In this document: positions 1,964 to 55,796 of the stretch, one piece after another
Layout of the letters: every line of letters begins with the position of its first letter
How positions within the stretch are numbered: the first letter of the stretch is position 1
From: an uncultured Chloroflexia bacterium
GTDB lineage: Bacteria > Chloroflexota > Chloroflexia > QHBQ01 > JADMIH01
Reading direction: 5' to 3'
Length of the DNA: 64,000 nt
NCBI GenBank assembly: GCA_963811305.1
Contig: CAWEQU010000005.1
Coordinates: 11,314 to 75,313, forward strand
The notes under the pieces: model-generated
What the model saw: only the letters and a program-made list of their open reading frames with translations
The model's database searches: none
What the model was told of the DNA's origin: nothing
Made by a program: the position numbers and the translations under genes

Positions 1964-2229
1964 AAACATGCGCCATCCCGAATTTTGAGCAAGCTTCATT
2001 AGAATCGACAAATCGACGGAACCGCCAAGACGCCAAGACGCCAAGAGCACCAAGAACCCGCCAAGATAATAAAGGATGGAGAGCTTCCTAATTCTTTACC
2101 CCTTCGTCTCAGCTAAATCTCCGCGTCTCTGCGCCTCTGCGGTAAAACCAATAAATAATCTTGGCGGGTTCTTGGCGCTCTTGGCGTCTTGGCGGTTCCG
2201 TACTCTATAGTTCGGGATCTCTCATGTTT
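1964..2229. mobile_element. MITE-like non-autonomous element, copy E1: ~20-bp terminal inverted repeat AAACAT-N5-CATCCCGAA, interior built of CCAAGAC/GTCTTGG and CTCTGCG heptamer arms
   Basis: Left end aaacatgcgccatcccgaatttt; right end agttcgggatctctcatgttt. Internal inverted arms lie at 2016-2067 and 2158-2201. Both ends match copy E2 (29039-29240) in the opposite orientation. No target-site duplication seen. Confidence 0.5.
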
Positions 2230-29038: not shown

Positions 29039-29240
29039 AAACATGAGACATCTCGAACTATAGAGTACGGAACCGCCAAGACGCCAAGAACGCCAAGAAA
29101 CCGCCAAGGTAAAAGAGGGATTATGGGCAGTGAGAGCACTACTTCCTCTAATATCTTGGCGCTCTTGGCGGATTCTTGGCGTCTTGGCGGTTCCGTCTAT
29201 TCTAATGACGCTTGCTCAAAATTCGGGATGACTTATGTTT
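29039..29240. mobile_element. MITE-like element, copy E2 (same subfamily as E1, opposite orientation)
   Basis: Ends aaacatgagacatctcgaactatagagtacggaaccgccaagacgccaaga.. and ..tcttggcggttccgtctattctaatgacgcttgctcaaaattcgggatgacttatgttt. Both ends align with the E1 ends, while the central ~60 nt differ. Confidence 0.55.
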
Positions 29241-39099: not shown

Positions 39100-39255
39100 A
39101 GCGAGCATACTGACGCACTAACGACTCTTTGAAAATATATAAAATGAAGGTTCGGCTACGCCGAACCTTCATTTTATATATTTTCAAGCTCCCCTCCCCG
39201 TTGGAGTGAGTTTATGCATGGGCAAACGTGCATTTATAGTTCGGCCCGAACTAGG
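39100..39255. mobile_element. Degenerate copy (E4) of the element at 55584-55796, containing a perfect 26-bp-stem hairpin (39131-39185)
   Basis: agcgagcatactgacgcactaacgactctttgaaaa..hairpin..ttcaagctcccctccccgttggag..tgagtttatgcatggg aligns with the reverse complement of 55600-55780. The termini are degraded. Confidence 0.45.
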
Positions 39256-41614: not shown

Positions 41615-41641
41615 TACTTACTCCAATCTGAAAACTAGGTG

Positions 41642-41684
41642 TTCTCTGGTGAAAGATGTGCTAAGCACATCTTTCACCAGAGAA
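41642..41684 (-). terminator. 21-bp-stem hairpin after copA (terminator candidate), of the TTCTCTG(G)TGAAAG family
   Basis: ttctctggtgaaagatgtgct a agcacatctttcaccagagaa, 13 nt downstream of the copA stop, followed on the minus strand by ..agttttc. Confidence 0.55.
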
Positions 41685-41696
41685 CTAAAAAGAAAG

Positions 41697-45237: not shown

Positions 45238-45290
45238 TTTCTCTGTGAAAAGTCGTGGGCGCGAAGCGCCCACGACTTTTCACAGAGAAA
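45238..45290. repeat. Perfect 25-bp-stem hairpin (TTCTCTGTGAAAAG family) in a divergent promoter region
   Basis: tttctctgtgaaaagtcgtgggcgc gaa gcgcccacgacttttcacagagaaa. The outer 14 nt resemble the 41642 hairpin while the inner stem is different but still paired. Confidence 0.75.
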
Positions 45291-50989: not shown

Positions 50990-51176
50990 TCATTCTCCCG
51001 TAGGGGCGCGGCACGCCGCGCCCGCCCTGTTCACCACAAGTCTAGCCATCCCAGGGCAGGCACGGGGACCTGTCCCTACCTAACATATGGCGAGCTAGCT
51101 TGACACCGCATAGTCAGTGTGCTATCTTGCCCAGAGCCGCATAGCGTGCCTGAATTATGGGAGGCATCTAACCAGC

Positions 51177-51998: not shown

Positions 51999-52183
51999 AC
52001 GTGATGCGTGATGAAACGTGAAACGTGAAACGTGAGAGCAGTGCTTATTCGAAACTCCAATACTCAACAAATCTCTGCGTCTCTGCGCCTCTGCGGTAAA
52101 CCTTAAAAAACTTGGCGTTCTTGGTCCCCTTGGCATCTTGGCGTTTAATAATCACGCATCACGCATCACGTTTCACGTTTCAG
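51999..52183. repeat. Composite heptamer element filling the stop-to-ATG gap (ACGTGAA/ATGCGTG arm, CTCTGCG x3, CTTGGCG units, CACGCAT/CACGTTT arm)
   Basis: acgtgatgcgtgatgaaacgtgaaacgtgaaacgtgag..ctctgcgtctctgcgcctctgcgg..cttggcgttcttggtccccttggcatcttggcg..atcacgcatcacgcatcacgtttcacgtttcag. The outer arms are complementary. Confidence 0.8.
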
Positions 52184-54274: not shown

Positions 54275-55585
54275 GTGACCCACTTCCACAGTCACCCCCA
54301 TCAAGACCCTTTGGACGCAGCGCAGGATGGCGGTGCGATTCCGCCTCTCCACGCCTCGCAGCTTATGCTGTATGGCCTCGGCGGGCTGGCAGGCGGCCTC
54401 GTCTTCACATTGATGAACAACGCTCTGCCCCTCTTTTTGAAGGCGTATACGATGCCTTTCGGCTTCTCCCCTTTCTTCGAGGCAGGCGCGGCGGTCCCAG
54501 CGACTGTCGTGGCGCTGCTCGCTAACGAGCGCTCCCTGTTCGGCGGGCTGATACAGCCGCTCATAGGCTCCCTGAGCGACCGCACGCGCTCCCCTCTAGG
54601 GAAGCGCAGCCCGTATATACTCGCCGGGGGTGCGGGCACGGCCCTGTGCATCGCCGCACTCGCCCTCCAACCCCCATTCTGGCTGATGATAGCGGCTGTT
54701 ACCCTCGCGGGAATATTCCTCTTCGTGGCGCTTGGGCCGTATATAGCACTGCTGGCCGACATCATGCCTTACAGCCAGCGTGGGCGCGCCGGGGGGCTGA
54801 CTGCCCTCGCAGGAGTAGTGGGCGCACTTGCCGTCGGGGTCCTGGCTAACCAGATGTGGGACCGGCAGCGCTGGCTGGTATTCCTGCTGACCGCCGCGGG
54901 GGTGGCGATTTCGCTGGCGATAGTGGCCTTCAGCGTTAGAGAACCCCAGACGTCATTAGCAACGGAGAAGGTGGATACTAAGAAGGACCACCTGGCAGAT
55001 ACGGTGCGTGCAATTGTGAGCTTTCGCCCGCTCGCCTGGTACGTGGCGGCGATGGGGGTGTACTGGCTGGGAGCAGGGGCCGCTACCCCGTTTATCACAC
55101 GCTTTGGAACGGACGAGTTGGGCGCCTCGCAGGAGATGTCCTTCGCACTCCTGCTGCCATTGATCATAGCGACGGCCGTGGGGGCGGTGGCGTCAGGCTT
55201 CCTTGCCGACAAAGTTGGACACCGGAGGCTGCTGCGTCCAGGGCTGGCCTTATTCGCGGTCGGGGCTACGCTGAGCGTACTGGTGCGCGACATGGGCCAG
55301 GCGGTGCCGGTGATGGTGATGGTGGGCCTGGCGAACGGCGTGCTAACCGCGCTGCACATCCCCTTCCTCGCCGACCTGGTCCCCAAGAGGCACGCGGGGG
55401 AGTTCATGGGCTTCGCCAGCATGATATGGTCGGTAGCTCAGCCTGTGGGTGCGGTTCTGGCGGGCTTCCTTGCGGACTTTACCGGATCTTTTAGAGGCGT
55501 CTTCTTCCTCTCAGGAATATGTATGCTGGCCGCCACTCTCTTGCTCGGCAAAGTCCCCGAAAAGCCCAAAGTACTCGAAGAGTAA
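54275..55585 (+). CDS. MFS transporter
   Basis: 436 aa with a 12-TM profile and the loop motif GSLSDRTRSPLGKRSP (MFS D-R-x-G-R-K/R-like). Confidence 0.8.
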   Translation: MTHFHSHPHQDPLDAAQDGGAIPPLHASQLMLYGLGGLAGGLVFTLMNNALPLFLKAYTMPFGFSPFFEAGAAVPATVVALLANERSLFGGLIQPLIGSLSDRTRSPLGKRSPYILAGGAGTALCIAALALQPPFWLMIAAVTLAGIFLFVALGPYIALLADIMPYSQRGRAGGLTALAGVVGALAVGVLANQMWDRQRWLVFLLTAAGVAISLAIVAFSVREPQTSLATEKVDTKKDHLADTVRAIVSFRPLAWYVAAMGVYWLGAGAATPFITRFGTDELGASQEMSFALLLPLIIATAVGAVASGFLADKVGHRRLLRPGLALFAVGATLSVLVRDMGQAVPVMVMVGLANGVLTALHIPFLADLVPKRHAGEFMGFASMIWSVAQPVGAVLAGFLADFTGSFRGVFFLSGICMLAATLLLGKVPEKPKVLEE

Positions 55586-55796
55586 ACATTACTCATCCCG
55601 AATTTAAGATTTGCACCTACCTCATTCATAAACTCACTTCGAAACCCCCACCCCCGACCCCCTCCCCAATGGGGAGGAGAGTTTGAAAAAAGTACAAAAA
55701 TGGAGGTTTGGCTCAGCCAAACCTCCATTTTTGTACTTTTCAAGGAGTTGTTAGTGCGTCAGCACGCTCGCTGAAAATTCGGGATGACTGATGTTC
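55584..55796. mobile_element. MITE-like element, copy E3, filling the gap between convergent genes, with a perfect 26-bp-stem hairpin (55688-55740)
   Basis: Ends aaacattactcatcccgaattt and aaaattcgggatgactgatgttc are inverted repeats of each other and match the E1/E2 termini. The left end overlaps the MFS stop codon. Confidence 0.6.

Follow-up and report, generated by a model that had tools for sequence, protein, structure and literature searches.

A miniature element family with the ends of a Tn5/IS4-like insertion sequence at terminator hairpins of a Chloroflexia genome

The window analysed here is a 64,000-nucleotide stretch of a Chloroflexia draft genome, designated G000 (4.6 Mb in 21 contigs, 57% G+C, about 71% complete by marker genes), and corresponds to positions 11314-75313 of its contig C5. 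Four related elements, E1 to E4, lie in the window, and all four are found where the original prediction had placed them. E1 is a 266-bp MITE (1964-2229) between two converging gene ends, with a predicted fold of -118.8 kcal/mol (z = -10.3). Its left terminal inverted repeat, AAACATGCGCCATCCCGAATTT, occupies 1964-1985 on the forward strand, and its right terminal inverted repeat occupies 2208-2229 on the reverse strand. Within the left repeat the conserved transposon end begins at CATG (1967), a limit that was set by comparing two copies of the parent insertion sequence (IS) described below. E2 (29039-29240) is a 202-bp MITE that is inverted relative to E1, and its flanks form an imperfect palindrome, CTTTTTCTTC(C) on one side and (A)GAAGAAAAAT on the other. 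E3 (55584-55796), a MITE of 213 bp, also lies between converging genes, and its first two A's complete the TAA stop codon of the upstream transporter gene, an overlap that had been noticed before. The centre of E3 is a perfect hairpin (55688-55740) belonging to a hairpin family that we call T2. It is terminator-like in both directions, and in a terminator scan it scores as a stem of 20 pairs with a T tail behind it. E4 (39100-39255) resembles the interior of E3 and contains a hairpin at 39129-39187, and both of its terminal repeats are decayed or truncated.

The six preserved ends of E1, E2 and E3 match the pattern AAACAT-N5-ATC(C/T)CGAA in inverted orientation, as predicted, and the description of the interiors also holds. 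When E2 is reverse-complemented, it matches E1 without a difference over about 50 nt at one end and about 70 nt at the other, CCAAGAC arrays included, and the centres of the two differ; E3 and the reverse complement of E4, which is without both ends, have a common interior. In E1 the CCAAGAC heptamers form a forward array at 2018-2066 and an inverted array on the reverse strand at 2158-2199, the left and right arms of a separate palindromic repeat nested in the element. The centres of E1 and E2 show no obvious terminator-like hairpin (a G+C-rich stem-loop with a T-tract), and the two elements fold into long stems (z about -10). An extra central segment of E1 (2113-2139) contains CTCTGCG-type repeats (TCTCCGCGTCTCTGCGCCTCTGCGG). 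The inverted CCAAGAC arrays are an independent palindromic repeat, far more abundant than the AAACAT elements: most of the 338 BLAST matches to E1 in the genome stem from the array pair and are mostly without AAACAT ends, and a solo copy lies, for example, at 52069-52146 of the window.

The AAACAT family extends well beyond the window. Its end consensus is (A)AACATGAG(T/A)CATCCCGAATTT, and the strict end pattern AAACAT-N5-ATC(C/T)CGAA occurs at 52 termini in G000. With one mismatch allowed, AACATGAGNCATCCCGAA has 30 forward and 32 reverse sites (62 in all), as against 0 + 0 for the reversed control pattern. Most of the ends form inverted pairs 180-270 bp apart, giving approximately 30 elements in three subfamilies. 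None of the 14 copies of subfamily I is in the window; those at unlinked loci reach 98.6% identity. The 11 copies of subfamily II, among them E1 and E2, are up to 94.6% identical and contain the CCAAGAC arrays, and subfamily III, which includes E3, has three copies that are 76-82% identical. E4 is related to subfamily III through its interior and has no ends. The elements are small (180-270 bp) and, as originally described, non-coding, and no ORF of at least 110 aa spans any of 28 copies. Prokaryotic MITEs are about 50-500 bp long, non-coding and multicopy, have terminal inverted repeats in common with an autonomous IS and are flanked by a target-site duplication; the AAACAT elements depart from this description in the duplication.

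The centres of subfamily I elements have the sequence features of a terminator, a G+C-rich stem-loop together with a T-tract. The 3-nt loop of this central hairpin reads either TGC or its reverse complement GCA in near-identical copies (C12:268900-268968 compared with C7:478911-478979), and a variant in one arm is always matched by a change in the other (GAACATTGGC and GCCAATGTTC, for instance). This variation of loop and arms is flip-flop behaviour of the palindrome centre. One MITE is present twice with identical flanks of more than 1 kb, near the end of contig C7 (C7:618653-618843) and inside C10 (C10:17675-17875), and reflects either a segmental duplication or an assembly overlap.

The original prediction had left the mobilizing enzyme open and had proposed that an autonomous partner be sought in the complete genome. 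Such a partner exists outside the window: an intact 1.65-kb IS at G000:C6:430015-431660 is bounded by AAACATGAAACATCCCGAATTTT and AAACATGAGACATCCCGAATTTT, with 22-bp ends that match those of the MITEs exactly or almost exactly. The parent was first found in two genomes of the same genus, G021 (contig C90) and G019 (contig C437), as a transposase gene between two such ends at a distance of 1.52 kb, and the C6 copy was located by searching G000 with the protein found there. A decayed remnant of the IS is also present in G000 at C9:54644-54898. The transposase ORF of the C6 copy (C6:430040-431410) is intact, encoding 456 aa in a single frame without frameshift, and the ORF in G019 is intact as well. 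Paired copies, in one MAG and in the genome of a Ktedonospora isolate, show that the element proper ends at CATG; the IS231 and ISH8 subgroups typically have such a CAT end (PMC2266710). At the left end of the parent (G000:C6:431415-431660) the terminal repeat runs directly into an inverted copy of itself to give a 39-bp hairpin, AAACATGAGACATCCCGAATTTTGGGATGTCTCATGTTT, that is kept in relatives at 62% identity. Beyond this hairpin are about 19 tandem TGATGCT heptamers, and next comes a stem in which the ribosome-binding site is paired (AGAGACCTC...GAGGTCTCT).

The C6 protein matches the Pfam family DDE_Tnp_1, and its sole relative in the PDB is the Tn5 transposase, in an alignment that spans the YREK region. 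IS4-family elements are characterized by D(60-110)D(100-150)E spacing, a Y(2)R(3)E(6)K signature, a single ORF, 5'-CA or CAT ends and a duplication of 7-13 bp at the target, roughly one turn of the helix (De Palmenaer et al. 2008, PMC2266710). The catalytic spacing in the C6 transposase, D132(104)D237(122)E360, fits this scheme, with E360 and the region around D237 aligned to the Tn5 transposase and D132 assigned by motif only. The Y(2)R(3)E(6)K signature is also present (YARRWQIEMSFRYGK) and aligns with the YREK region of Tn5. Scores against the NCBIfam IS4 and IS701 models are below the cut-offs, the best being 58.8 bits against a cut-off of 152.

Related transposases of 47-61% identity were found at 13 loci from Ktedonobacteria, Anaerolineae, Chloroflexia and Thermomicrobia (47-63% when G019 and G021 are included). 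CATGAGTCATCCCGAA ends bound twelve of the 13 loci; the remaining locus is a truncated match at which an inverted repeat was not found. Ends and enzyme have therefore stayed associated across deeply diverged lineages. The parent element measures 1.4-1.65 kb in size. The protein family has more than 4585 members, mainly from Chloroflexota, annotated simply as 'transposase' or 'hypothetical'. Of 26 genomes of the genus, five were found to have the transposase, and it was not detected in three genomes that carry 21-27 ends.

The discovery of these ends on an IS that encodes a DDE transposase bears directly on the mechanism originally suggested, a TnpA(IS200/IS605)- or REP/RAYT-like single-strand process. 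Under that explanation a Y1 (HUH) enzyme, either the TnpA of IS200/IS605 or a RAYT, would excise and insert folded single strands without any need for a duplication, in keeping with the missing target duplications, the long hairpins into which the elements fold and the two Y1 proteins that G000 encodes. The genes for these proteins are on C8 and C9. The C8 gene, whose product is an IS200-type TnpA with a score exceeding the curated cut-off, has different, long inverted repeats of its own on both sides, and the C9 gene, a weak RAYT-like match (G000:C9:309330-309572), lies between GTAG-tagged REPs (GTAGGGGCGTGATTTATCGCGCCC). AAACAT ends were not found near either of them, so the single-strand mechanism is not supported. 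REP/RAYT systems consist of 20-40-bp palindromes with a GTAG or CGTC tag that flank a Y1 gene (PMC3733652, PMC2817692), and the AAACAT elements have neither tag; their perfect 22-bp terminal inverted repeats and symmetric flanks also set them apart from IS200/IS605-derived palindromes, which are devoid of terminal inverted repeats, have asymmetric subterminal hairpins and insert 3' of a fixed tetra- or pentanucleotide. Given that both Y1 genes carry repeats of their own and that the 22-bp terminal repeats are identical to those of a DDE-transposase IS with which they co-travel across the Chloroflexota, we consider mobilization by a Y1 enzyme very unlikely. The GTAG-tagged REPs are a separate family of short palindromes, GTAGGGGC(R)(Y)G(S)C, with 170 matches in G000; members occur in the window at 51000, 59076 and 61958, and GTAGGGGCGTGATTTATCGCGCCC is a variant.

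A gene 3' end adjoins 25 of 28 copies of the AAACAT elements, usually 5-40 bp from the stop codon, and 12 of the 28 lie between converging genes. In 40 copies from five genomes, with flanks counted outward from the CATG ends, no direct repeat of at least 3 bp was found (0/40), in agreement with the absence of target-site duplications noted originally. Instead the flanks are symmetric: perfect inverted flanks of at least 3 bp, usually AAA on the left and TTT on the right, are present in 32 of the 40 (null expectation 1.6%), and those of at least 6 bp in 15 (null expectation 0.03%), including nine with 10-18 bp. The longer inverted flanks (6-18 bp) have a different sequence at each site, and some of the 40 copies are without a palindromic flank. 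Duplications were likewise not found in full-length copies with pairable flanks, namely those at the 13 genome loci, in G019 and G021, and two Ktedonospora copies. The full-length Ktedonospora copies have flanks without A/T tracts and are still duplication-free. In metagenome contigs, where the pairing of flanks is unreliable, two left/right flank combinations form 14-15-bp inverted repeats, for example TCAAAAAGCACGAAA and TTTCGTGCTTTTTGA on the two sides of the IS.

Two readings of the junction bases were considered and rejected. CATG could be a palindromic 4-bp target duplication, but a TATG variant confined to one end has been passed on along with an internal variant in four copies; the CATG bases therefore belong to the element. 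Conversely, AAA and TTT could be part of the element, but the symmetric variants AGA/TCT and CAA/TTG arise independently across sub-lineages and species, and full-length copies have other flanking bases. An IS4-type DDE enzyme is expected to duplicate about 10 bp (PMC2266710), and since no such duplication is seen, the chemistry may differ from that of the IS4 family. Because it lacks this hallmark and scores below the curated model cut-offs, we class the parent as IS4-like and assign it to none of the named IS4 subgroups.

Orthologous sites in related genomes, the inspection of which had also been proposed originally, were compared. Joined flanks of 26 G000 copies were searched in the nearest genome, G004, in which the flanks are 82-94% identical. 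The element is absent from G004 at seven sites that are filled in G000 (E1, E3, C12:268845, C8:479020, C21:75039, C5:164763 and C6:629140). In place of E1, G004 has a 37-bp terminator hairpin, in place of E3 a 50-bp terminator-like hairpin, and at the E2 site a different, unrelated repeat. At C5:255630 and C12:206352, G004 has an element of the E3/E4 type whose right end is at the same position as that of the CCAAGAC-type element in G000, so that a single site has different interiors in the two genomes. In the reverse view, a G004 MITE site is occupied by unrelated repeats in G000. Metagenome contigs gave 0 matches to a same-species empty allele, and for the full-length IS copies a search for empty sites with joined flanks (in the genus for the G021 copy and in Ktedonospora relatives for those of that group) returned flanks that are unconserved or lie beside another repeat.

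These comparisons speak to the possibility that the elements are conserved regulatory or terminator DNA inherited vertically, and not insertions at all. A position just after stop codons and terminator-like central hairpins are what such DNA could show. The seven orthologous sites without the element in the nearest genome refute this reading, the near-identical copies at unlinked loci and the ends in common with a transposase-bearing element also speak against it, and we give vertical inheritance next to no weight. The original prediction had itself named a lack of further genomic copies, or conservation at orthologous sites as regulatory DNA, as grounds for abandoning it. Copies occur genome-wide and sites are empty in the relative, so the prediction passes its own test, and its description of a MITE-like mobile family with common ends and exchangeable interiors is borne out.

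At four of the orthologous sites (C8:479020, C12:268845, C21:75039 and E1), G004 has a stem-loop between the same A- and T-tracts that enclose the element in G000. The tracts align between the two genomes at E1 and C21:75039, and the outer stems are also common to both at C8:479020 and C12:268845 (TTATC...GATAA and AAAGAT...ATCTTT, respectively). The element thus takes the place of the hairpin stem-loop. The C12:268845 site illustrates how variable such a position is across the genus: six species have an ordinary terminator (GGAAGAGGGCTGG...CCAGCCCTCTTTTTT or a variant), G001 has a perfect hairpin, G004 a T2 hairpin, G000 a MITE, G011 another MITE, and G019 a heptamer-array element. As the flanks in G004 are only 82-94% identical, the comparison is compatible alike with one-step replacement, with insertion followed by loss, and with independent insertions into a bare palindrome.

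Hairpins of this kind are widespread in the genome. G000 has 410 perfect hairpins with stems of 12-33 bp, which fall into families; examples in the window are at 39129-39187, 55688-55740, 41641-41685 and 45238-45290. Members of a family have conserved G+C-rich tips and A/T-rich outer stems that are variable and perfectly complementary, and the hairpins look like nested, layered palindromes at terminator positions. The T1 family (...ATCAAAATGAGCGCC-TGC-GGCGCTCATTTTGAT..., about 45 copies, e.g. TTCTTATCAAAATGAGCGCCTGCGGCGCTCATTTTGATAAGAA) has variable, perfectly paired outer stems of this type, T2 is the centre of E3 and E4, and T3 is the centre of subfamily I. T1-type outer stems hold three MITEs (C6:553510, C8:479020 and one on G004:C34), exactly at the place of the G+C-rich T1 tip. 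Three nested cases show that elements of the family have also landed in the central hairpins of other copies. At the central A-tract of a subfamily I element, the C6 IS adjoins the right half of that element, the copy at C21:108895 adjoins a left half in like manner, and the copy at C8:411721 lies in a subfamily III element where a T2 hairpin is expected. Among the perfect palindromes of G000 with arms of at least 10 bp, no bare AAATTT-centred palindrome, which could represent an empty target, was found.

Taken together, we propose, with a probability of roughly 0.8, that E1, E2 and E3 are non-autonomous miniatures derived from an IS with a Tn5/IS4-type DDE transposase, which land at terminator hairpins at gene 3' ends without duplicating the target, and that E4 is a decayed relative. 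The IS4-like transposase would bind the common 22-bp ends and move the small elements in trans, as the co-occurrence of ends and enzyme suggests. The copies themselves show that the family lands beside the 3' ends of genes and at the centre of symmetry of palindromic sequences, typically between the A-tract and the T-tract of a terminator-type hairpin; the element then fills the place of the G+C-rich stem-loop, no target duplication being made. Our preferred guess for how a duplication is avoided is that the strands are transferred to the base of a hairpin that has extruded, the tip being lost. Many copies have a terminator-like hairpin at their own centre, and the gene therefore probably keeps a terminator. 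The central hairpin slot may in turn serve as a landing or exchange site for other palindromic repeats (the CCAAGAC arrays, T2 and T3) and for further copies of the family, and the different interiors would arise because the slot itself receives such repeats.

The main rival to this proposal is cassette exchange by template switching at A/T tracts. It requires no transposase for the spread: palindromic cassettes would be swapped between terminator sites through template switching or gene conversion at the microhomology of A-tracts, T-tracts and outer stems, with the IS ends as passengers. Such exchange would leave no duplication and would place the junctions always at A/T tracts, and it could explain why one site has different palindromic cassettes in different species, why the arms of the central hairpin co-vary between sub-lineages while the 3-nt loops flip in near-identical copies, and why there are genomes with many copies and no detected transposase. 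However, the 22-bp ends are kept in all three subfamilies despite unrelated interiors, a sign that recognition by the transposase is selected for, and the junction is always exactly at CATG. The Ktedonospora full-length IS copies, duplication-free in flanks without A/T tracts, and the copies without a palindromic flank are also difficult to reconcile with exchange at tracts and stems. We therefore regard cassette exchange as improbable and retain transposition of derivatives of the Tn5/IS4-type element as the better account.

As a MITE/IS pair, the family is ordinary selfish DNA of an already known kind; what is new, if confirmed, is the duplication-free, terminator-replacing behaviour. A Tn5-like DDE clade without a duplication in any of about 60 insertions contradicts a defining trait of the IS4 family, and this points to a different geometry of target attack. 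By swapping in for terminator stem-loops and bringing their own, the elements would provide a concrete route for the turnover of transcription terminators, and by the same route long perfect palindromes would accumulate in Chloroflexota genomes. A broader and more tentative possibility, which we consider doubtful at present, is that the Tn5-like clade as a whole (more than 4500 relatives, mainly in Chloroflexota) integrates structure-specifically, joining the base of an extruded hairpin and discarding the tip without duplication, with repeated rounds building nested palindromes. Such 'replacement' integration, if true, has not been described for DDE transposases, and its repetition would yield onion-like nested perfect palindromes and exchangeable interiors throughout these genomes.

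Several known systems have features in common with the AAACAT family. REP/BIME sequences with RAYTs are likewise extragenic palindromes without target duplication (PMC3733652, PMC2817692). The AAACAT elements differ from them in their length of 200-270 bp, their long terminal inverted repeats, the lack of a GTAG or CGTC tag and a partner of the DDE rather than the Y1 type. Among the small repeats of other bacteria, Correia elements duplicate TA. These elements of Neisseria and SPRITE of Streptococcus pneumoniae are, like the AAACAT family, small intergenic repeats with hairpins resembling rho-independent terminators, and they insert into one another (PMC10969869), whereas no cognate IS4-like partner has been described for them.

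Short non-autonomous derivatives in which only the ends are kept and the interiors are unrelated are a trait of the AAACAT family that recalls MIC231. The MIC231 cassettes are short and non-autonomous, keep only the ends and have unrelated interiors. IS231 itself (IS4 family, Bacillus cereus group) resembles the parent element in its Tn5-like DDE/YREK transposase, single ORF, 5'-CAT ends and symmetric target (PMC2266710). In contrast, IS231 makes 10-12-bp duplications (PMC2266710) and the AAACAT family makes none, and the transposase of the latter is far below the NCBI IS4 model cut-off (58.8 versus 152 bits). ISRm22 of Sinorhizobium meliloti, also of the IS4 family, and other REP-targeting IS choose palindromic extragenic repeats as targets and insert precisely at their axis of symmetry, in many cases where two genes converge (Tobes and Pareja 2006, PMC1525189), and are in this respect like the AAACAT family. 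They differ in that ISRm22 generates direct repeats of 6 bp and leaves the two halves of the interrupted REP beside it (PMC1525189), whereas the AAACAT family produces no repeat and the G+C-rich tip is missing. IS231 with MIC231 and the REP-targeting ISRm22 are the closest known elements.
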